Of a stretch of 64,000 nucleotides of DNA, positions 1 to 12,938 are shown in pieces. Position 1 is the first letter of the stretch; each line of letters starts with the position of its first letter. Origin of the DNA: an uncultured delta proteobacterium (GTDB lineage: Bacteria > Desulfobacterota > Desulfobaccia > Desulfobaccales > 0-14-0-80-60-11). The translations under genes and the position numbers were made by a program. The notes beneath the pieces are model-generated. The model had not been told where the DNA came from, made no database searches, and saw only the letters and a list, made by a program, of their open reading frames with translations. The stretch lies in NCBI GenBank assembly GCA_963812015.1, contig CAWETI010000002.1, positions 640,001 through 704,000 on the forward strand, in the 5' to 3' direction.

Positions 1-949
1 GCAAATGCCTGGCCACCGCCCCGGCAAAGAAGCGCTCTTCATCTGGGATCAACCGATCGAACACTGCCGTCTGGCAGTGCAGGTCGAAGCGGGGTGACCG
101 TTCAATCAGCAGTTCCCGGGCCACAGCCGTCACCAGAGGAGAATCCAGCCCGCCGCTGAGATATACCCCTACCCTGTCGGTGCGTAAGCGGTCCGCAACC
201 GCCTCCCGCAGCAACTCCTGGAACCGGTCCACATAGTCCCGCTGGCGCCGGTAGTGCACGGGGCCTTCCTGAGGCAGGCGCCAGTAGCGCTGCACCTTTA
301 CGGCGCCCCCTGCCTCCCAGGTCTGGGAGTGGGCCGCGGGCAGGCGCCGGATGTCGACAAAGCTCGTGGTAGCCGGGTCCTGGTTGAATTCAAAGAGGAG
401 GAAATCGGCGATGACCAGGTCATTGAGCCGGTCGGAAACGTCCGGGTGCTGCCGGATGCAGTTCAGGGTATTGCTGAAAACCAGGCTACGGCCCGTTTCG
501 GCATAATAGAAGGGCTTGACACCGAAATGATCCCGGGCGCAGAACAGCCGCCGGTGGCGTCCATCCCAGAGGGCGAAGGCAAAATCTCCGATCAGATGTT
601 GGAGACAGTCGTCCCCCCAGACCTGGTAGGCATGAAGGATCAATTCGACATCGGGGGAATTTTTGGGAACGGCGCAGCCCCGGGCGGCAAGCTGTTTGAC
701 GAGATCGGCGCGGCCGTCGATACGGGCGTCCGCGGTGATCCACACCTGGCCGTCCAGGGTCAAGGGCTGACAATCCGGCCGGGTGTCATCCACCGTGCGC
801 AGCAGGGCATGCCCGAGGCCTACTGTGCCCTGGCTCCAGGTCTCCTGGGCATCGGGGCCGCGGAAGGCCAGGAATTCCGTCAGGCGCCCCAGCAACTCCC
901 GATCCACCGGTTGCCCGTCCAGATTGATGAGGCCCACGATGCCGCTCAT
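1..949 (-). CDS. Asparagine synthetase-like lasso peptide cyclase (C protein), partial, runs off the left edge
   Basis: Manual minus-strand translation from ATG at 949 gives MSGIVGLINLDGQPVDRELLGRLTEFLAFRGPD..., and near 140-170 GVYLSGGLDS (PP-loop). Ser replaces the catalytic Cys2 of true AsnB. ATGA overlap with the upstream gene. Not in the ORF track. Confidence 0.88.
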   Translation of the reverse strand, partial: MSGIVGLINLDGQPVDRELLGRLTEFLAFRGPDAQETWSQGTVGLGHALLRTVDDTRPDCQPLTLDGQVWITADARIDGRADLVKQLAARGCAVPKNSPDVELILHAYQVWGDDCLQHLIGDFAFALWDGRHRRLFCARDHFGVKPFYYAETGRSLVFSNTLNCIRQHPDVSDRLNDLVIADFLLFEFNQDPATTSFVDIRRLPAAHSQTWEAGGAVKVQRYWRLPQEGPVHYRRQRDYVDRFQELLREAVADRLRTDRVGVYLSGGLDSPLVTAVARELLIERSPRFDLHCQTAVFDRLIPDEERFFAGAVARHL

Positions 950-2538
950 TTTGTGCCCTTTATCGCCCGGTATTTAGCTTTAAAAGCGAGACGTATGTGA
1001 TACCAGGCCCGCTGAACTGCGTTCCCGATATCCCGAGGGATCATCTTAATGGCGGCCCAGACTTCCTGTCTAACCTCGGCCCCTTGCCGCTTTTTCAAGA
1101 AGAGCCGGGCCAAGCGGCTGCGGACCACACAGCCGTCATCACCGGCAGCGATACCCATACGCAGCGATATTATAGCAGTATCAATCTGTCCTTGTGCAGC
1201 ATAAAGCCTACCTAAAATCGTATGTATCCGGAAATGATCGGGGTCCATGAGGAGGGCGCGGTCATTGTGGGAAAAGATGGGAGCCCCTATGGGCAGATAG
1301 CCCCGCAGGCTCAAGTGCAGCGATCTTTCGTACGCCTCAATAGCCTCAGGACCTCGACCTCGCTTCGACAGAACCTTTCCCAAGGTGCGCCAGGCATCCA
1401 CCAGATGGTCGTCAAGTTCCAAGGACTTGCGCAGCCAGGCCTCTGCCTCCTGCCACCGCGTGAAACGGGTCGCCAGTTGTCCCAGGCCGAAATGGGCGTA
1501 AGCGTCTTCCGGATTCAAAGTTAGGGTGCGCCGGTGCTCCTGCTCGGCCTCTGGGTAGCGCCGGTCCCAGTAATACCAGAACCCGCCGCTGCCATAAGCG
1601 GTGCCGTAAGCAGGGTCAAGTTCCCGAGCCCGCCGGTGGCACTCCCGGGCGTCGGTTGGTCTCCCCATATCGGCGTAAGCGCCTGCCAGGAGGAATTCGA
1701 GGGCAGGATTGTCCGGGAGAAACTCTCTGGCCTGAAGATAGGTTTGCACAGCCTGGGGCAGGTTCCCCCCAGTCTTGGCTCGGGCTCCCTCCCGCAGCAG
1801 GGTCATCCCTCGCAGAAATGGCTCGTGATCTCGAACCCCATCCAGGCGCCGGGCCAATTCATCGCCCAGATATTTCCACTGCAATGGGGTAAAGCCTCCT
1901 TCCACCGAATAGGCGATGGTCACCAGTTCGGCCTGGATGCCCATGTCCTTGAGGCCGGTCGCCAAAGCGTCGGGCCAGCACCAGGGAAGTCCCCGATGTT
2001 GGTCGCTGGAGTGGCAGGCCTTGGGAATCACCATATAATCCACGTCGATATCTAATAGGACCTTTTCGGTTATCAGGGGCAGGCCCTGCAACGTGCACAC
2101 CCGCAAGGGCCTCCCCAAAATTGCGCCGGCAATCAGATCTCTTTCCGCCTTGAGGGGATGCGGCTTGCCGGGATATTTTGCCAAAATTTTTTGCAAACTC
2201 CGTACCAAAGGCTTGCGGCTTCCGGCATCCCCCAAGGTCCGATCAGGGACCACCCAAAAGATTTCTCTGACCATGCCTTCCTTCAAGGCCTGGCAGATAA
2301 AGTTGCCAATATTGAGGGAAGACCGGTCTGCGCACCAGCTCAGGTCATCATGGGCGTCCACGTGGACCAGAATTTTCTCACGGACTCCGGCATCCTTCCA
2401 AACAAAATAGGCCTGGTCATGGTTTTCCATGAGATGGACACGCTTCAGAAAGGGTTCTACCTGGCTTAAGGCTGACTTTTGCATATCTTTACTGGTCTGC
2501 TGCCCCGATAATTGTGGCTGCATAATGACCGGCCCCAA
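946..2538 (-). CDS. UPF0489/arginase-deacetylase-fold (peptide arginase-like) protein with C-terminal TPR repeats
   Basis: HVDAHDD, LLDIDVDY and YSVEGGFTP motifs, then multiple TPR-like helical repeats. Start uncertain (2538, 2523 or 2484). Confidence 0.7.
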   Translation of the reverse strand: MGPVIMQPQLSGQQTSKDMQKSALSQVEPFLKRVHLMENHDQAYFVWKDAGVREKILVHVDAHDDLSWCADRSSLNIGNFICQALKEGMVREIFWVVPDRTLGDAGSRKPLVRSLQKILAKYPGKPHPLKAERDLIAGAILGRPLRVCTLQGLPLITEKVLLDIDVDYMVIPKACHSSDQHRGLPWCWPDALATGLKDMGIQAELVTIAYSVEGGFTPLQWKYLGDELARRLDGVRDHEPFLRGMTLLREGARAKTGGNLPQAVQTYLQAREFLPDNPALEFLLAGAYADMGRPTDARECHRRARELDPAYGTAYGSGGFWYYWDRRYPEAEQEHRRTLTLNPEDAYAHFGLGQLATRFTRWQEAEAWLRKSLELDDHLVDAWRTLGKVLSKRGRGPEAIEAYERSLHLSLRGYLPIGAPIFSHNDRALLMDPDHFRIHTILGRLYAAQGQIDTAIISLRMGIAAGDDGCVVRSRLARLFLKKRQGAEVRQEVWAAIKMIPRDIGNAVQRAWYHIRLAFKAKYRAIKGTK

Positions 2539-2584
2539 GTAATTGGCAAAGCTCCGGCGACTGTCAAGCCTCCAAAGGGCGAAC

Positions 2585-3061
2585 TTAAGGAGCCGCCGGG
2601 GGGATTATTTCCCGAGGGAAAGGGGGAAACCGCCCGGCCACGTTCGCACCGTCATTCAGCGGCTGGCCCTGGAACTCCACCCAGGCGTGGGCTTCCAGGC
2701 GGCTCGGCTCAGGCTTAACGCCGATGCGCAGCTCTCCGGCAAGCCCCTGGCGGCGCAACAGCCACCAGAGGACCAGGGATCGGGGGAGACAGGTGGGCCG
2801 AAAGAGGCCGTAACGGGCTGCAACCTGCACCAGGCGGGCGGTGGCCCGAGCCTGATCCAAGTCCGACTTTAGGGCAGACAGGTGCGGGGCCAGGGCCTCT
2901 CCCTGGTTCAACCTGGCCTGGAGCCGGCAGAGTCCCCAGCAGCGCAGTCCTAAGGCCACCAGGGGGAGCGCCAGGGAAGCCTGGACCAACAACCACCGCT
3001 CGGCCCCGGAAAGCTGCCATGCTTTCTTTAGATTAATTTTCGTGGAGTTCCAGTAATCCAC
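2585..3061 (-). CDS. Lasso peptide biosynthesis B2 protein (transglutaminase-like leader peptidase)
   Basis: CLPRSLVL...LRIGV...AHAWVE Cys/His motifs. Start uncertain (GTG 3061; ACG at 3043). Confidence 0.9.
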   Translation of the reverse strand: MDYWNSTKINLKKAWQLSGAERWLLVQASLALPLVALGLRCWGLCRLQARLNQGEALAPHLSALKSDLDQARATARLVQVAARYGLFRPTCLPRSLVLWWLLRRQGLAGELRIGVKPEPSRLEAHAWVEFQGQPLNDGANVAGRFPPFPREIIPPAAP

Positions 3062-3317
3062 GCTGCACCATCTTGGACACAAAATCATCTAGGTCTTGCC
3101 GCAGCAAAGGTGGGTCAACCTCATAGTCTGCCAGCAACTTCTGGTAGGCCGCCTCGATATTCTCGCTGGAGGTCAGAGCCTGGCACATGCGCGTCCCCAC
3201 GCCATCCAGACCGTGGTAGCATTCGGTGTCGAGATTGAGGAGCACAGATTCGTTTTCGAAGGTGCGCATTAAAACATTCACGGGGAAGGTAACCCGCATG
3301 CTCATGGAAAAAGGCAT
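3033..3317 (-). CDS. PqqD family RiPP recognition element (lasso B1)
   Basis: 94 aa, ESVLLNLDTECYHGLDGVGTRM...LLADYEVD...DLDDFVSKMVQRGLL, adjacent to B2. Confidence 0.9.
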   Translation of the reverse strand: MPFSMSMRVTFPVNVLMRTFENESVLLNLDTECYHGLDGVGTRMCQALTSSENIEAAYQKLLADYEVDPPLLRQDLDDFVSKMVQRGLLELHEN

Positions 3318-3534
3318 GGTGTCAATTCCTTATATATATTATGCTTGATGTATAATTGCTGTTTTTTAAATTTTTCCCCTTTTCTCCAAAAAGGCTATCT
3401 AAAATATTGCCTTAGGTCAGGGCGTTAATTATATTATCTAAGTATTTAATATTGCTTGATTTTAATAATAAATTTGGGATATTCAAACAAGTTTTTTATA
3501 ATGCTTTATACTACAGATTTAAGGCCACCTCAAC

Positions 3535-4683
3535 ATGTTTCTACCCATGGGCAGTCTCCCAGAGTCTTGGCTGGCGGCATTTACTCTTCTCCGCCCCTTG
3601 TTGCCAGTGATAGAGGAGAGGGATCCTCCGGGGGGGGTAACCACCCTGCGGACTCTGGATGCCACGTGGGTAGAACATTGGCGTGCCTTGCAACTCACCC
3701 CGTTGCTGTACCGCGAACTGGCGCGCCGAGGCTGGGATGCGCAGATTGCGCCCCCATGGTGGTCCACCCTCCGGGATGGCTACGTCCTGGCCTTACAGTC
3801 TGCCTTCCAAGAAGAAGAAGAGATCAAGGAACTCCTGCGAGCCCTAACCAAAGCGGGGGTCACCCCGATTCTTCTTAAAGGCGCCGATCTGCGCCTGCGA
3901 GTTTACGGCGACCCTGCTGTTCGGCCCATGGCTGACCTGGATATCCTGGTGTCGCCGAGCCAAGTCGACCGGGCTCGGGGGGTGCTCGAATCCATGGAGT
4001 TCAGGCTGCAGGCCCAGTGCTTTGATCCACGTCCCGGCTGGCGGGCTCGCTTTCGCAACGAACTTCACTTCGCTCCCCCCCCGGGTTGGCCTCTCCTGAT
4101 CGACCTGCACTGGCAATTATATTATATCTTCCGCTTTTATCACTTGCCTTATACCCGCTTGCAGGAAAAAGCCATCACTTCTGAGTACCAGGGATACCTC
4201 GTAAAGCTACTTTGCCCAGAACACCTAGTGATCCACCTTGCCCTCCACACCTACGCCGAACCCGACAGCGTCCTAAAAATCATTGATCTAGAAGGGGCAC
4301 TTTCCCTTCCCCTAGACTGGCCCTTTTTCCTGGAAGAAGTTGCTCGTTTCAACTGCCAGAGGCCTCTGTATATTATCCTCCTGGGGATATCCCGGCTTTT
4401 TCCCCAAAAAGTGCCTCCCTTTATCCTTGATCACCTGGGCCAATCCCGGCCCGCGTGGGTTGAAAAACTGGTCCTCCGAGAGTCCCTGGGCTACCTGACT
4501 GTTCATGCCGCCACCCTGTACCACCATAGGCGACTCTCAGACTGGTTTTTTTACCTGAAGGCTTTAACCTGGCCGCAAGAAGAATACCTGACAGCAATGT
4601 ATGGAATGCCTGACCGCATTCGTTTTTTTCAACAAATCCTGGCCCACCTGTTTTCCTACGCCAAAAACTGGGGGCCGCATTAA
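3535..4683 (+). CDS. Nucleotidyltransferase family protein (NTP_transf_5-like, lasso-cluster associated)
   Basis: PILLKGADL...RPMADLDILV and IDLHW motifs. Divergent from B1. Confidence 0.85.
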   Translation: MFLPMGSLPESWLAAFTLLRPLLPVIEERDPPGGVTTLRTLDATWVEHWRALQLTPLLYRELARRGWDAQIAPPWWSTLRDGYVLALQSAFQEEEEIKELLRALTKAGVTPILLKGADLRLRVYGDPAVRPMADLDILVSPSQVDRARGVLESMEFRLQAQCFDPRPGWRARFRNELHFAPPPGWPLLIDLHWQLYYIFRFYHLPYTRLQEKAITSEYQGYLVKLLCPEHLVIHLALHTYAEPDSVLKIIDLEGALSLPLDWPFFLEEVARFNCQRPLYIILLGISRLFPQKVPPFILDHLGQSRPAWVEKLVLRESLGYLTVHAATLYHHRRLSDWFFYLKALTWPQEEYLTAMYGMPDRIRFFQQILAHLFSYAKNWGPH

Positions 4684-5042: not shown

Positions 5043-5640
5043 CAGGATGTTGAAAAACTCGTTTGTTAAGAACCCCAAAGAATCGCTGTCTATAAAACCA
5101 TAAAGCTTTTATAGTTAATGATAACAAAAGGTTATCTGGAGGCAGCGATTATGCGCGGTGACGATATGCAGCAGCAAGCCATGTTCAGCTACCTTTCCCC
5201 TGAAGCTCGAGTGCCCCAGGATCATCCCCTCAGACCCATCCGGAACATGGTGAATCAAGCTTTGGCTGAGCTGGCCGGGGAGTTCCAGGCCATGTATTCC
5301 CGGGAGGGTCGCCCTTCCATCGCCCCGGAGAAGCTGCTGCGCGCCTTATTGCTCCAGGTCCTTTACACCATTCGCAGCGAACGGCTCTTGATGGAGCAGT
5401 TGGATTAAAATCTCCTGTTTCGCTGGTTCGTTGGCCTGTCCATGGACGACAATGTCTGGGACCATTCCGTCTTCTCTAAGAATCGGGAGCGCTTTCTCCG
5501 TTCGGACCTGGCCGCGGCCTTTTTCGGACGCATCCACGAGCAGGCGGCCCAGGCCGGACTGTTGTCGGACGAGCATTTCACCGTGGACGGCACCCTCATT
5601 GAGGCCTGGGCTTCCCTGAAGAGTTTCCGGCCCAAAGACA
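5043..5640 (+). mobile_element. Truncated IS5/IS1182-like insertion sequence (left end plus transposase N-terminus)
   Basis: CAGGATGTTGAAAAA terminal IR-like sequence at 5043 preceded by CTAA. Transposase similarity ends near SFRPKD at about 5640. Confidence 0.7.
5151..5640 (+). pseudogene. IS5-family transposase pseudogene
   Basis: MRGDDMQQQAMFSYLSPEARVPQDHPLRPIR...EQLD*NLLFRWFVGL...HFTVDGTLIEAWAS. In-frame TAA at 5406-5408 and 3' truncation. Confidence 0.85.
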
Positions 5641-5841
5641 CTCTGATTTTGGGCATACCTCACCCGTCAAGAAGGTGCAGAACGAACGGGAGGGAGATAT
5701 TAACCGGGGCTGGCCCGCAGGCCCGGCCGAGGGCCGAAGCATCTCTATAAGAGTTAATCAGTTCCCATATTTCTGCCATTCTATCAATCCTTGGCACCTG
5801 ACCTGAGTCCCTGGCAGGGATATTATCAACTCCTTTCATTA

Positions 5842-7971
5842 TCAGTTAAATTTAGGATTTAATTTCTGATAACCTTTTTCCAATTCTTGATTCATGAGCT
5901 GGATTTGATTGGTTTTTTGATAACATCGGCAGAGAGAAATATTGATCTTCTCGTCTTCCGGGCTGATTTTTTCGGCTTTTTTCAGTTCAGGGATGGCCCG
6001 CAAATATTCATGGGTCTTTTCGAAGCTCATTCCTAATATCGCATGGACATTGATATCATCTTCCTGACAATTCAGTTCCAAGGACTTATAGACCGCCTTG
6101 ATGGCTTGCCGGTAGTGTTTCTTTTCGAATTGATACCTGGCCATGAAGAGATGAAAGCGGCCGTCATGGGGAACTTTCTTTAAGGCTTTCCGAATAATAG
6201 CCAGGGCCTGACGGCTCTTTTTCTTTTCTTCATAATAGGAAACCAATCCCCTCATTTCTTCTTGACCATCTTTATCTAATAGATAATTACCCAAAACTAA
6301 TATATCCATTTCCGTGCTTAAAAAAACCTCGATCGCGTCAGCAGGTGTTTCGACAATCGGCATCCCACGGATATTAAATGAAGTATTTAAAATGACAGGC
6401 ACACCGGTTATTTGATAGAATTCATTTATCAAATCATAATAAAGTTCATCATCAGCTCTGGTTACGGTCTGCACCCTGGCGGTGCCGTCTACATGAATAA
6501 CCGCAGGTATCTCTTTGCCTTTATCCTCTTTTGTGGTCGCCACCAGCAACATAAAAGGGCTGGGGCAAGAAAGATCAAAGAATTCGGTGGCACATTCCAA
6601 AAGGATGCTGGGGGCATAGGGGCGAAAACTCTCCCGGTGCTTCACCTTTTTGGTTACCGACTCTTTTATCCCGGTCTGCCTGGGGTCGGCCAGAATGCTT
6701 CGGTGACCTAATGCCCTGGGGCCGAATTCAGCACCTCCTTGAAACCAGCCAACGATCTTGCCGGCCGCAATATACTGAGCGGTTCTGCTGAGGAGTTCGT
6801 TTCTGGTCAAAGGGTTTTTTACTATCTTATGCTTGCGCAAAGCGGCCCGAATCTCTCCTTTCTTGTATTTTCTCCCAAGATAAACATTTTTCAGAGGAAA
6901 TCTACTCTTTCCATCGGCTAATTTATGCCAGCCGTATAAGGCGCAACCGATGGCTATCCCATCATCCGTTGCGGCCGGCTGAATAAAAATATTTTTAAAT
7001 GGAGTACTATCCAATATCTTCTTATTCGCAACCGAATTCAGGCCGGCACCTCCGGCTATACAAAGATTCTCTGATCCCGTCATTTCAAACAGCCTATTCG
7101 CCAGGCAAATCATGCCTTTTTCCAGTTCTTCCTGTGCTTTGTAGGCCAGATTTTTGTAAAATTGAGTAAAGTTATCGTTTTTCGGCTTTACGATTGGCAC
7201 CAAGTAGCCTTTGTTGGGCTTGGCAATTTTGAGGTCTAACGCCAGCTGGGCAAATCGGCTATTTTCTATATGGTGATCAGTAATTTCAATGATATCCGGC
7301 CAATCTTTCACAGGTTTGCCGTAGGCGGCCAGTCCCATAGTTTTGCCCGCCTCGGTAACAATAATGCCCGATGACGGATGGTATTTTTCCATTGAAAAAC
7401 CTAATACAATAGAGATGAAATTATATATATAAGCTAGCGAATAATAGGCTTTCATTTGAGGATTTTTGGCCGACCATAACTTCTGATAATTTTTTAGTAT
7501 CTGTTCTATGTTACTGCCTTTGGCGTAGAAACCGCTTTCCGCCTCTGTCCCATTCGATGTTTCACTACCGAATACGTCAGCAACTAGCACCGCACTTTCA
7601 CGAAAAGGAGAGCAAAAATAAGAACTATAGGCATGGGCCAGATGATGTGACGGGTGGGGCAGGCATTTAATTTTAGATTTATCTTTAATCGGTAAGAGAG
7701 ATTTAAGGCTCTCTAAATTGACAGGTTCAACGGCATTATCAGCTACGATTAAATCCACATCATCCAGACCGATATTTGCCGAGTTCAGGCAGTAGGTTAT
7801 GGAGCGCATGGGGGGTATTCTGCTATTCTGGTCTTTCTTGCGTACCTGAAAATATAAGGTTGAGTTCTTGACTCCATCCAGCCGCTCTTCAGCAATGGCA
7901 AATAAGATCCTGCCGTCCTTGAGCAGGCAGGCGCTCCGATCATGACTTAGATTTATTCCTAGGATATGCAT
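5842..7971 (-). CDS. Carbamoyltransferase (NodU/CmcH family) with C-terminal TPR repeats
   Basis: ILGINLSHDRSACL, IAEER, HHLAHAYS, GKTMGLAAYG, AGGAGLNSVAN, EFGPRALGHRSIL, HVDGTARVQTV, LNTSFN. Helical TPR-like tail. ATG at 7971. Confidence 0.92.
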   Translation of the reverse strand: MHILGINLSHDRSACLLKDGRILFAIAEERLDGVKNSTLYFQVRKKDQNSRIPPMRSITYCLNSANIGLDDVDLIVADNAVEPVNLESLKSLLPIKDKSKIKCLPHPSHHLAHAYSSYFCSPFRESAVLVADVFGSETSNGTEAESGFYAKGSNIEQILKNYQKLWSAKNPQMKAYYSLAYIYNFISIVLGFSMEKYHPSSGIIVTEAGKTMGLAAYGKPVKDWPDIIEITDHHIENSRFAQLALDLKIAKPNKGYLVPIVKPKNDNFTQFYKNLAYKAQEELEKGMICLANRLFEMTGSENLCIAGGAGLNSVANKKILDSTPFKNIFIQPAATDDGIAIGCALYGWHKLADGKSRFPLKNVYLGRKYKKGEIRAALRKHKIVKNPLTRNELLSRTAQYIAAGKIVGWFQGGAEFGPRALGHRSILADPRQTGIKESVTKKVKHRESFRPYAPSILLECATEFFDLSCPSPFMLLVATTKEDKGKEIPAVIHVDGTARVQTVTRADDELYYDLINEFYQITGVPVILNTSFNIRGMPIVETPADAIEVFLSTEMDILVLGNYLLDKDGQEEMRGLVSYYEEKKKSRQALAIIRKALKKVPHDGRFHLFMARYQFEKKHYRQAIKAVYKSLELNCQEDDINVHAILGMSFEKTHEYLRAIPELKKAEKISPEDEKINISLCRCYQKTNQIQLMNQELEKGYQKLNPKFN

Positions 7972-8113
7972 ACTTTTCCTTTTTCGATGCCTTAATCCGA
8001 GATTATGCCGCATACATAGCTGTTTCTGTCTCAACGAGGTTTTGGAGCCTCTTTGGCCGAGCAAAATCTCCCAAACGGTCCTCTTCTCGAGGCCAATTCT
8101 TCTCAGAGGTGGG

Positions 8114-8204: not shown

Positions 8205-9522
8205 CTAAGGACCCCAGGCCAGCACTGCCCGACAATAGTGTGCCAGAGGAAAGGCGGAGGCCACATGGACATACCATCTCCGGGCATGGTAAGAAAGCCT
8301 GGCGCCCACTTTGATTAATCGCTTGATCAGCCACTCCATGGACCGTTTCACTTCTTCACCCCAAACATTAGGACTGCCGGATCATATGCAGAAGGTTGTA
8401 GACCAGAACCCCCATCTGTAGCCTGGCCTGGTTGGCCTCGAACCCTTGGCAGCTGGTTTTGTCCCGCCGAAGAATGTTCTTCCCTTCCTTGATACGGTTT
8501 TCTATCTCGGCCCGGCCATTATAGACCTTGATCACCTTGCCGGCAGGTAGCCTGGAGTTGTTGATCACAAAGCCGATCCTGGGGAAAAGCTCGCCCCGGT
8601 GCCACTCGATCTTGGCCACTACCCGGCGAGGCCGGCTCCAACTCTTGGCCTGGTAGTGGAGGTCAACGATTTTGACCTGAATGCCGCTCTGGGGCGGTCG
8701 CCCGACCGGACGACCAAGATGAGGCGCCACCAACCTATCCAGGTTCTTATTTGACGGCAACCGAATGAAATATGTCATACGGTGTTCTTCGCAATACTCG
8801 TAGGCCTCCGGGTTGGCAAAGGCAGCATCGCTACGCAGCCAAAAGAGCCGGAACCAGGGGGGGTAACGCTCCACCAGGGGAGTAATAAATGGCAGAGTGC
8901 CGTCGGCGGAATGGACGTTCCCCGATCTCAGCTTTGCCATCAGACAAACGCCCTCGCTGGCAAAGCAAAAAAGCGGATGGAAACAGTTCTTGCCAAAGTG
9001 GCCATTGTAGGCGACGCCCTCCTGATTGCCATGCACCGGGTCCTCGGTGGAATCCAGGTCGATGATCAACCGCTTTTTGTTCTTCCTCCTTAACAAGGTA
9101 TCAGTGGACCGGGGCAGGGCGGCTTCCAAGACCTGAAGCCCAGCCTCGTTACCCAGGATGTCATTCTCCAACCGGGAGAGCATGGACTGGCTGGCTCCAG
9201 TCTCATGGCCCTTATCAAGAGTAAGCCTGAGGGCTGGATCGATGCGGAGAAAATCTGCATCGTTACAATCTTCATAGCCCGCAGCTATTTGGTAGACTCT
9301 TTGACGCACCATCTAAACCAATGAGTGTTTCGTATGAGTAGGTGATCTCAAATCTTCCAGATAATCTTTCATGGGGTCAATGATCATGAAACGTTCATCT
9401 ACCTCACGCAGTAGGATGAACCCAGTGTGGGAGGATATGGTGGCGCCCTGGAAATCTATCATGATGGCTCGGTTAAAATCCGGCCGGATCACCTCATTCC
9501 GGCTTTCACCACTATCGAGCAT
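8205..9522 (-). pseudogene. IS1380-family transposase pseudogene
   Basis: IDLDSTEDPVHGNQEG, LRSDAAF, YNGRAEIENRIKEGK. In-frame TAG at 9313-9315 and a frameshift near 8370, after which VWGEEVKRSMEWLIKRLIKVGAR...RRWYVHVASAFPL continues to TAG at 8205. Confidence 0.88.
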
Positions 9523-11120: not shown

Positions 11121-12938
11121 TTATCGATAAGAACTCGCCTGCATTTCAAATAACCGCGCATACTTACCGGCCATCTGAATCAACTCGTTATGCGTGCCGC
11201 TTTCGAGTATCCGCCCATTTTCCATGACAAAAATATAATCCGCCAGCCTGACCGTCGAAAAACGATGGCTGATGAGCAGAACCATGCGGTCTATAAACAT
11301 TTTCCGGAAGGATTGAAAAACCTCGTATTCCGCCCGGGCATCCATCCAGCTGGTGGGTTCATCCAAAATGATCAATTGGGCTTTGCGCAAGAAGGCCCGG
11401 GCCAGAGCCACTTTTTGCCATTCGCCCTGGCTGAGTTCTCCCTGGTCCTCAAACTCATGGCCCAAAACGGTCTCGTAGCCCCGGGGCAGCTTCTGAATAA
11501 AAATATCGGCTTGGGTCTGTCGGGCGGCACTGATAATCTTATTGTCGTGAGCAGGTAAACTGATGTCTCCCAGCCAGATATTTTCCCGCGCCGTCAGGCA
11601 GTAGCGGGCGTAATCTTGAAGGATAACGCTGATCTCTCGCCTTATGGCATCGGGATCAAACTGGCGCAAGTCAATACCGTCAATGGCTATATTGCCGCTT
11701 ACCGGATCATAGAGACGGCAGAGGAGCTTGATAAGAGTCGTTTTTCCCGACCCATTCTCTCCCACCAGCGCTACCATCTGGCCCGGCAAAATCTGAAGGT
11801 TGATATCCTCCAGGACGGTTCTCTCCGCTGTGGGGTAGTGAAAATTGACCCGTTCTAGCAAGATGCCTTCCTTTATGGGCCGCGGGAAAGCTGCCGGCGT
11901 GCGAGGCTCCACCAGCTTAGGCTTGAGATCGAGGAACTCGTTAAAGTTGGCGAGAAAGAGGTTATCCTCGTAGAGACTGGTCAGGCCGGTCCAGATCTCC
12001 TGGAGAGCCCCCTGACCCCGCTGAAAGGCCCCGTAATACATGACCATATCCCCGATGGTAATCATCCCCTCGACCGTCTGGTAGGCAACGAAAGCGAGGG
12101 CCCCAAAAATTGCCAACGTGGCGCTGGCTTGGGTGACCAAATCCGCCAGGGACCGTTTGGCCGAAATGTGCAGCTTTTCGATCCGGAGCTTCTTTCTTAA
12201 CTCCCGGAACCAACCCATGAAGAGCGGACCCAGGCCAAAGAGCCGGATCTCCTGAGCATGGCCGCCGTCGGTGAGCATCCAATGATAATAATGGGCCCGC
12301 CTTTCAGCCTGGGTGTGCTGGCTCTGCCAATCGTACATCTGCCTGGCGTATTTCAAGCGCATCAAAACCCCGGGGACCGTAGCCACAAACAGCATGGCGG
12401 CAACCCACCAGCGAAATGAGACCAGCAAACCGGCCAGGGCTAAAAGCGAGATGCCGCTTTGCCCCAGTTGCATCAGGCTGTCCATTATCCTCGTCGGCCT
12501 GTAGGTGGCCTCCTGCTGGGCCCGGTGCAGGGTGTCATAGTACTTGGGGTCTTCATAATATTCCAGGTCTACCGCCACCGACTTGCCATGGATGACATCG
12601 GCAACATGATCGGTGACCACCTGGGTCTGGGCTTCCTTGGCAATCTCAGTGAGAGAGCGGCAACAGGCGGCAAACAAGGCCACGGCAGCCGCCAGAACGA
12701 TGAGCAGGGTTACTTTTTTGAGGGAGTCGGTTTTGTCTGGCGAGAGCAGACCAGAGGTGACCGCATCGACAATCAGTTTCATCAGGTAGAGGGAGACCAG
12801 GGGGAGCAAGCCCTGGATCAGAATGAGCCCGAAATTTGCGACCGTCCATCCCGGGGCGCTTTGCCAGACTAGGCGCAAGGCCCGCTCCAGGTGCAGGCTG
12901 TGCCTGATCCTCTCTTTAAGGGTTTTGGCTGGTTGCAT
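11121..12938 (-). CDS. ABC transporter, fused permease/ATP-binding (lasso D-type exporter)
   Basis: N-terminal TM helices, GENGSGKT, LSQGEWQK, ILDEPT, ISHR. Confidence 0.93.
   Translation of the reverse strand: MQPAKTLKERIRHSLHLERALRLVWQSAPGWTVANFGLILIQGLLPLVSLYLMKLIVDAVTSGLLSPDKTDSLKKVTLLIVLAAAVALFAACCRSLTEIAKEAQTQVVTDHVADVIHGKSVAVDLEYYEDPKYYDTLHRAQQEATYRPTRIMDSLMQLGQSGISLLALAGLLVSFRWWVAAMLFVATVPGVLMRLKYARQMYDWQSQHTQAERRAHYYHWMLTDGGHAQEIRLFGLGPLFMGWFRELRKKLRIEKLHISAKRSLADLVTQASATLAIFGALAFVAYQTVEGMITIGDMVMYYGAFQRGQGALQEIWTGLTSLYEDNLFLANFNEFLDLKPKLVEPRTPAAFPRPIKEGILLERVNFHYPTAERTVLEDINLQILPGQMVALVGENGSGKTTLIKLLCRLYDPVSGNIAIDGIDLRQFDPDAIRREISVILQDYARYCLTARENIWLGDISLPAHDNKIISAARQTQADIFIQKLPRGYETVLGHEFEDQGELSQGEWQKVALARAFLRKAQLIILDEPTSWMDARAEYEVFQSFRKMFIDRMVLLISHRFSTVRLADYIFVMENGRILESGTHNELIQMAGKYARLFEMQASSYR

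Follow-up and report, generated by a model that had tools for sequence, protein, structure and literature searches.

Introduction

The closest described systems for the locus considered here are the peptide arginases of RiPPs (ribosomally synthesised, post-translationally modified peptides) and the lasso peptide clusters of the paeninodin type. For the peptide arginase OspR, the accessible part of PMC10028609 proposes hydrolysis of the guanidino group by a hydroxide bridging two manganese ions, with release of urea; it gives His12, Asp39, His41, Asp43, Asp165 and Asp167 as the manganese ligands, proposes that Glu11 stabilises the guanidinium, and assigns Ser170-Ser234 to a dimerisation domain. 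[quoted passage not shown] PbsE and BipC, from pathways of the biphenomycin type, are described in the accessible parts of PMC12257519 and PMC12707348 as UPF0489-type arginases that contain tetratricopeptide repeats (TPR) and make ornithine in a RiPP. Here we describe an arginase-like protein with TPR repeats, encoded between the leader peptidase (B2) and the cyclase (C) of a lasso-type operon in DNA from an uncultured delta proteobacterium (assembly GCA_963812015.1, contig CAWETI010000002.1). The window, i.e. the whole stretch of 64,000 nucleotides that was analysed, is G000:C2:640001-704000, and positions without a prefix are in window numbering.

We suggest that this gene, the third of the operon, encodes a TPR-fused di-manganese peptide arginase that would convert arginine to ornithine in the lasso precursor, and from sequence comparisons and structure models we put the probability of this reading at about 0.72. 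An ornithine-containing lasso peptide had been proposed in the first-pass annotation of the window; the idea now draws support from the predicted arginase fold, from arginine in the putative core, from linkage of the enzyme to B2 and C, and from covariation between the enzyme and core arginine.

Results and discussion

A paeninodin-type cluster and its precursor

The order B1, B2, arginase-like/TPR gene and cyclase on one strand, as originally annotated, is borne out, with all four open reading frames (ORFs) on the minus strand, and so is the ATGA overlap said to couple the third gene to the cyclase: the plus strand reads tcat at 946-949, which on the minus strand gives ATGA. A 4-nt ORF overlap is also present in several related loci, e.g. 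L003, L027, L082, L083 and L090. The cluster extends beyond the left edge of the window, where the precursor is located, and B1, B2, the kinase, the nucleotidyltransferase and the arginase-like gene each occur as a single copy in the genome. The central features are the following.

3033..3317, minus strand: B1, RiPP recognition element of the PqqD family, 94 amino acids (PF05402)
2585..3088, minus strand: B2 leader peptidase, open frame of 167 amino acids (NF033537, PF13471)
946..2538, minus strand: peptide-arginase-like domain plus TPR repeats, longest frame 530 amino acids (530 codons), by NF052474, PDB 8BRP and structure
946..949, minus strand: ATGA stop/start overlap of the arginase-like gene and the cyclase gene, read from the sequence
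1..949, minus strand: lasso cyclase, 5' half inside the window, start at 949; the whole gene encodes 610 amino acids and ends at G000:C2:639117
G000:C2:636803-636949, minus strand, outside the window: precursor of 48 amino acids, with an AGGAGG ribosome site upstream

B1 scores 48.8 bits against PF05402, above the cut-off of 23.4, and matches NF033536 and NF033530 under both cut-offs; B2 scores 81.2 bits against NF033537 (cut-off 33) and 79.6 bits against PF13471 (cut-off 26). Because the B2 open frame overlaps B1 by 56 nt, the actual B2 start may lie farther inside the frame, and with the N-termini of relatives also considered the start is ambiguous. The best model for the cyclase is that of the lasso cyclases, NF033535 (362.5 bits, under the cut-off of 525), and the best AsnB model reaches 240 bits. 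The genes of the paeninodin/pseudomycoidin subtype are present as well, namely an HprK-like kinase (TIGR04352, E 3e-8, under cut-off) and a nucleotidyltransferase (PF14907, above cut-off). By these profile matches, the locus is a paeninodin-type lasso peptide cluster. In the related locus L183, which has the cyclase closest to the present one, the place of the arginase-like gene between B2 and C is taken by a radical-SAM-like ORF (L183:10521-11972), and the slot thus seems to take exchangeable tailoring genes.

The product of the precursor ORF is MKSTKKERLAYHPPQVMDYGNVKQITMATGRNGNTDTGGWTGRNKTAA (48 amino acids). In lasso leaders, a Thr at position -2 marks the site of cleavage. By this rule, B2 would cut after Met27, with Thr26 at -2, leaving residues 28-48 as the predicted core, whose landmarks are Ala1, Arg4, Asp9, Trp13, Arg16 and Asn17-Lys18-Thr19. 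The arginine that an ornithine peptide presupposes is thereby found twice in the core, as Arg4 and Arg16; the core has no Ser, and its C-terminal end is K-T-A-A. Along with the Thr at -2, the precursor has the small first residue (Ala1) and the acidic residue at 7-9 (Asp9) of a lasso peptide, and it matches two lasso leader models, both under cut-off (NF033528 at 21.5 bits against 33).

The low scores of cyclase and precursor, taken with a Gly-rich core that has few bulky residues and with the ambiguous B2 start, would also suit a peptide that is modified but remains branched-cyclic or linear instead of threaded, or a locus that is silent. We give this very little weight, as every gene is open, the leader Y, P, G and -2 Thr are invariant in 37/37 aligned precursors from enzyme-bearing loci, with the ring Asp kept in at least 90%, and in 83 of 101 cores position 8 or 9 holds the first acidic residue counted from position 6 onward.

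Fold and active site of the arginase-like protein

The arginase-like domain spans approximately residues 30-240 and is followed by TPR repeats at approximately 240-500, with TPR Pfam matches from about residue 258 onward; the database gene call for the protein is 512 amino acids long (start 2484). The earlier label, UPF0489-like, is weak by Pfam (PF12640, 12.3 bits, E 0.23, cut-off 27) and is carried by NF052474 (E 6e-14), the match to PDB 8BRP, and the predicted structure. Relatives behave similarly, 36/49 matching PF12640 at E<=0.05 (best 1.9e-5) and 49/49 matching NF052474 at E<=0.001. Against PDB sequences, the N-terminal domain matches OspR (8BRP) at E 4.5e-8 as its sole match under E 0.3, and a profile of 49 sequences finds OspR at E 1.8e-15, again the sole match, here under E 0.1.

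The AlphaFold2 model of the N-terminal domain (predicted local distance difference test 88) agrees with the proposed arginase fold. In a structural search of 48,161 chains OspR 8BRP came first (Z 15.8, root-mean-square deviation 2.8, 172 residues aligned), the next ureohydrolase followed at Z 11.0 and HDAC-like deacetylases at Z 6-7; Foldseek gave E 6e-8 for the N-terminal domain against OspR. The full-length model has a predicted template-modelling score of 0.89, and Foldseek with this model had TPR proteins alone among the matches listed. The best ESM Atlas matches (0.86-0.87, two of three named UPF0489) are under 0.9 and serve as a lead only. Complex prediction with enzyme residues 10-490 (512-residue form), two Mn and the precursor gave a score of 0.02 and a mark of 0.32 and is counted neither for nor against the reading.

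The arginase-type motifs noted at the outset are both present, DAHDD at 61-65 and DIDVD at 163-167. The OspR ligands map to H40, D61, H63, D65, D165 and D167, so that all six are kept, and they are invariant in 101/101 aligned homologues (the query and 100 of 120 listed matches); the His-to-Asp spacing is 21. OspR Ser264 is retained as S211, and conserved acids beyond the ligands are D41 (100%) and E213 (96% of the 101 rows). The motif here is ENHDQAY, and the published form with Glu before His is not matched; among 144 motifs readable from 159 related loci, ENHD occurs 92 times, EDHD 26 times and EEHD once. From the DxD motif to the next helix in the alignment there are approximately 22 residues, as against approximately 76 in OspR, and by this alignment most of the OspR-type dimerisation domain is absent. 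Because Glu11 is replaced by Asn, the dimerisation domain is mostly gone and the scores are under cut-offs, we do not file the protein in the curated families; judged by its sequence it is a sister branch of FlmR/OhkR and PF12640, not a member, and most likely works alike.

The same active site bears on the alternative that the enzyme acts on core Arg with another outcome, such as citrulline, by way of the Glu-to-Asn exchange and D41/E213, or that it acts only after another cluster enzyme has done so. N39 in place of Glu would be in line with this, as would structural neighbours that include a guanidinase, metformin hydrolase and hydroxyarginine hydrolase, and the need of PbsE for a pre-modified substrate (according to the passages on PbsE). 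The covariation described below shows that Arg matters, not its product. Nonetheless, the nearest fold and ligand set are those of OspR, and a methyl-Arg substrate is unlikely as presence of the methyltransferase is not associated with core Arg; we consider another outcome unlikely, though it deserves to be kept in mind.

Covariation of the enzyme with core arginine

A leader-only profile built from the enzyme-bearing loci was run on them as well as on 114 B2-anchored loci from three classes, which are a subset of the B2 matches biased to strong matches away from contig ends. A precursor was called in 106 loci, from which 11 were removed for having identical cores; L180, the pseudogene locus, was also excluded. 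Core Arg was present in 45/47 enzyme-bearing loci and 22/47 enzyme-free loci (Fisher 1.2e-7, kinship not corrected). No residue but Arg was enriched at p<0.01, Phe was depleted (p 0.001), and GC content was equal between the sets. The enzyme was found elsewhere in 0/47 of the control genomes, some of which are incomplete. A general preference for basic residues was considered and rejected, as Lys occurs in 36/47 of both sets.

Kinship was addressed with a cyclase tree of 88 rows, with L180 and 6 loci without a full cyclase left out. On this tree, 12 independent pairs gave 8.2 concordant and 0 opposite (median p 0.008), and 9 pairs from an IQ-TREE tree lacking one long branch gave 6.8 concordant and 0 opposite (median p 0.016, range 0.004-0.125); the controls in the pair test, Lys, Asn and methyltransferase-versus-Arg (IQ-TREE tree), were null. 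Individual loci show the same pattern. L180 carries a decayed arginase remnant of 156 amino acids between B2 and C (L180:4575-5045) along with an Arg-free core, and L185 and L186, identical in gene order, have three and no core Arg with and without the enzyme, respectively. The association of the enzyme with core Arg is the strongest evidence for Arg tailoring. Since many enzyme-free cores also have Arg, the implication holds only in the direction from enzyme to Arg.

Homologues and linkage to lasso genes

The closest named homologue (83%) comes from a Desulfobaccales genome, and the host thus probably belongs to that order. The branch comprises 625 of 2073 candidates; at E<=1e-30, clustering to 50% identity gives 328 clusters. 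The related loci collected number 159, with genomes contributing 79 and metagenomes 80. Flanks of 4 kb or more on each side are available for 64 of them; in 32 of these 64 the loop after DxHxD is short, as in this protein, and these were taken as close homologues. The predicted linkage to B and C genes held up well, with B2 or C in 29/32 of these close loci, along with a kinase in 31, the nucleotidyltransferase in 20, the methyltransferase in 17, Wza or Wzc in 9 and a carbamoyltransferase in 3. Within the host's class, 15 of 83 genomes contain B2, and 4 of the 83 carry a full arginase domain, each time beside B2; one further genome has an arginase-domain remnant and one has weak matches only.

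This linkage also bears on the possibility that the protein is a metal hydrolase for another substrate, such as a deacetylase or amidohydrolase acting on a sugar or small guanidino compound of the adjoining polysaccharide locus, or a non-catalytic peptide-binding scaffold. Such a role would fit a locus that abuts a Wza/Wzc cluster, a fold shared with HDAC-like deacetylases, and the few homologues that have no lasso genes nearby. However, the gene lies inside the B1-B2-C unit and is coupled to the cyclase gene, the close loci have Wza or Wzc far less often than B2 or C (9/32 against 29/32), and the association with the core is specific for Arg, not Lys; the six invariant ligands speak against a dead scaffold. 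We therefore regard it as improbable.

Of the other 32 loci, 22 have a loop of 33-44 residues after DxHxD, and B2 or C is found in 0/22; in the remaining 10, where the loop could not be measured by pattern, B2 or C is found in 5. A CxxxCxxC protein occurs in 27/32 loci outside the short-loop group. The long-loop members inspected retain the metal ligands and have PqqD, radical-SAM and kinase genes as neighbours. Arg is present in 24/24 Cys-rich precursors found among 57 long-loop-clade loci, a count that comes without a control set. As this sister clade serves radical-SAM peptide clusters, the enzyme is not specific to lasso peptides.

Several side observations concern these homologues. The long-loop sister clade (L025-L081, e.g. 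L037:9962-12993 and L063:9336-12286), often with EDHD, likewise consists of arginase-TPR proteins, and its clusters combine PqqD, radical SAM, an HprK kinase and a nucleotidyltransferase with Cys- and Arg-rich precursors whose leader, KKPYxKP, is similar. On the Ramlibacter albus contig L023 a close homologue has no lasso genes within 10 kb, and the B2 match of that genome is at G086:C34:188680-189030. Locus L021 contains an arginase-TPR-GT41 fusion frame of 1329 amino acids (L021:9884-13873), and the protein P0137 (1298 amino acids) has a length like that of this frame. Protein P0036 (646 amino acids) has GATase Pfam matches and is perhaps a read-through into a cyclase.

Proposed course of the reaction

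If the protein is a peptide arginase, a hydroxide bridging two Mn ions would attack the guanidino carbon at Arg4, Arg16 or both and urea would leave, each conversion of Arg to Orn changing the mass by -42.02 Da. The step would probably take place on the linear precursor, before cyclisation, because most lasso tailoring acts there (10.1101/2024.12.31.630886, from the part of the text at hand). The TPR array or B1 might present the peptide, substituting for the dimer cleft of OspR that is missing here; B2 would then cut after Met27, and the cyclase would join Ala1 to Asp9 around the tail. The predicted masses are 2086.99 for the unmodified peptide, 2044.97 with one Orn and 2002.95 with two, excluding any kinase, nucleotidyltransferase, GT41 or methyltransferase step. 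As the Arg positions are scattered among cores, a tolerant enzyme like OspR fits better than a strict one like PbsE or BipC.

A number of observations weigh against a peptide arginase in this role. Core Arg is missing from two of the 47 enzyme-bearing loci (L026, and L113, a short locus), and Arg is found in the 22/47 enzyme-free loci given above plus 4/11 of a later set (the later B2-anchored set comprised 20 Vicinamibacteria-class loci, none of them enzyme-bearing). The enzyme-bearing and enzyme-free sets were sampled differently, the p range of the weaker tree test reaches 0.125, and the position of Arg is variable, with at most 10/49 cores sharing any one place. Three of the 32 close-homologue loci (L023, L035, L074) lack B2 or C nearby. 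The arginase-like domain is under both curated cut-offs, with 52.3 bits against 350 for NF052474 in addition to the 12.3 against 27 for PF12640, and Asn (N39, 96% of the 101 rows) precedes the first metal His, where OspR has Glu11. Finally, one contig of run X1 has C>T at L002:4822 (depth 4, allele or error), by which core Arg16 would be His. Run X1 is probably the source sample, and the contig is therefore not independent; if the change is real, Arg4 is the steadier target.

A further idea is that ornithine is a working handle: in relatives with Arg1 and Asp7 its side-chain amine would close the ring, giving a side-chain-to-side-chain lasso, and in the present peptide ornithine would be accompanied by N-glycosylation of Asn17 through the GT41 enzyme. 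Cores with Arg1 and their only ring-range Asp at 7 number 3/50 among enzyme-bearing and 0/50 among enzyme-free loci (L008, L016, L090). Within the enzyme-bearing cores, an Asp7-only ring Asp is found in 3/4 of those with Arg1 against 0/46 of the others, which amounts to two or three independent cases at most. We find this idea rather improbable.

Companion genes and other features

Further features of the cluster and its surroundings are as follows.

C2:637158-639002 (L002:5158-7002), minus strand, outside the window: GT41/TPR glycosyltransferase
C2:635733-636773, minus strand, outside the window: HprK-like kinase
C2:634549-635736 (L002:2549-3736), minus strand, outside the window: PRMT-fold methyltransferase (PF22528)
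after the methyltransferase gene, outside the window: UpxY/Wza/Wzc polysaccharide locus
3330..3534, no strand: AT-rich divergent intergenic region with sigma-70-like sites (minus strand 3486-3459, plus strand 3474-3502)
3535..4683, plus strand, divergent: NTP_transf_5 nucleotidyltransferase (PF14907, 131 bits, cut-off 31.2)
11121..12938, minus strand: ABC exporter (PF00005, PF00664)

The nucleotidyltransferase is a regular companion, being present in 20/32 close-homologue loci. The C-terminal Ser that accepts phosphate in paeninodin and pseudomycoidin is absent, and since the core is without Ser we would guess Thr19 as the target of the kinase. The GT41/TPR gene, located between cyclase and precursor, has relatives in L021, L095, L118, L183, L217 and L277. 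An N-x-S/T sequon occurs in the cores of 5/6 GT41 loci against 18/89 others; with L095 counted, which had been dropped as a duplicate core, the figures are 5/7 against 18/88 (p 0.008, kinship not corrected). It is possible that GT41-bearing loci make N-glycosylated lasso peptides.

The PRMT-fold methyltransferase has a weak PqqD-like match at its C-terminus, and cores ending in Cys-Leu are found in 10/47 loci with the methyltransferase and in 0/48 without it. That this enzyme methylates core Arg, with the arginase acting on methyl-Arg, was considered and rejected: Arg is present in 4/20 enzyme-free methyltransferase loci, and the pair test was null. The frequent neighbourhood of polysaccharide loci hints at a surface-related role. 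As a side observation, the UpxY/NusG antiterminator before the polysaccharide locus (L002:1623-2286) is apparently split over two frames, with what we take to be the KOW-like part in a separate ORF.

The scanned region had 12 sigma-70-like sites against 5.7 in shuffles, and these are consensus matches only. The ABC exporter may be the transporter of the peptide; ABC genes are present in many related loci, but the profile used also matches unrelated ABC genes. A NodU/CmcH-type carbamoyltransferase with a TPR tail lies at 5842-8064 and is weakly linked to the cluster. It was tried as a pathway member and rejected, with 3/32 close loci and a GC content of 43.5% vs 57.7%. It is flanked at 5118-5750 and 8368-9522 by what we take to be broken transposase-like genes. 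At 43753-63912, ORFs presumably like QueD, QueE, QueC and FolE2, a tRNA-guanine-transglycosylase-like ORF, two DGQQR-motif proteins and a large helicase resemble, by our own reading of the translations, a 7-deazaguanine DNA modification (Dpd) island.

Comparison with known systems

The first-pass annotation had put the tailoring step as one not known from characterised lasso clusters, and no published lasso link was found in a search that covered mainly the open literature, with supplements and subscription papers little covered. Among the titles and abstract openings listed, neither an ornithine lasso peptide nor a lasso-linked arginase was found; the word 'lasso' occurs 0 times in the accessible text of PMC12703449 (including a supplement search) and of PMC10028609, and the word 'ornithine' 0 times in that of the lasso review PMC9266682. 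Neither the lasso setting nor this branch of arginases appears in the literature that could be searched. TPR-fused peptide arginases and their chemistry are already known from PbsE and BipC, and we claim neither new chemistry nor a new pathway class. If our interpretation is correct, ornithine would join the roughly dozen secondary modifications of lasso peptides, and a function would be given to a large peptide-arginase branch that databases label only 'TPR protein'; lying under the Pfam cut-off, this branch may have been overlooked by genome mining. The system bears on whether an arginase can work without the Glu11 and the dimer cleft of OspR, and, again if true, might offer a position-tolerant tool to place ornithine in lasso scaffolds.

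With OspR (PDB 8BRP; PF12640) and FlmR/OhkR (NF052474) the protein shares the predicted fold, the six Mn ligands in three motifs and the retained Ser264, and they are likewise encoded beside an Arg-containing RiPP precursor. It differs from OspR in having ENHD instead of EEHN, in the largely missing dimerisation domain, and in the TPR fusion. PbsE has the same His-to-Asp spacing of 21; in the accessible descriptions, PbsE and BipC have the motif EEHxE, are strictly site-selective on an FRF motif, and belong to MNIO/B12 radical-SAM clusters, whereas the protein described here goes with lasso machinery and with Arg at varying positions, a comparison made by description and not by alignment.

Among lasso clusters, those of paeninodin and pseudomycoidin have the same core gene set, with split B1/B2, kinase and nucleotidyltransferase, whose roles in lasso clusters are reviewed in the part of PMC9266682 at hand. 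Their kinases target a C-terminal Ser, whereas here there is no Ser, and the arginase-like, GT41 and PRMT-fold genes come in addition to that set. Citrulassin is likewise a lasso peptide tailored on an Arg side chain (PMC9266682, same part); there, a remote peptidyl-arginine deiminase yields citrulline, while here the candidate enzyme is a ureohydrolase-like protein encoded within the cluster itself.

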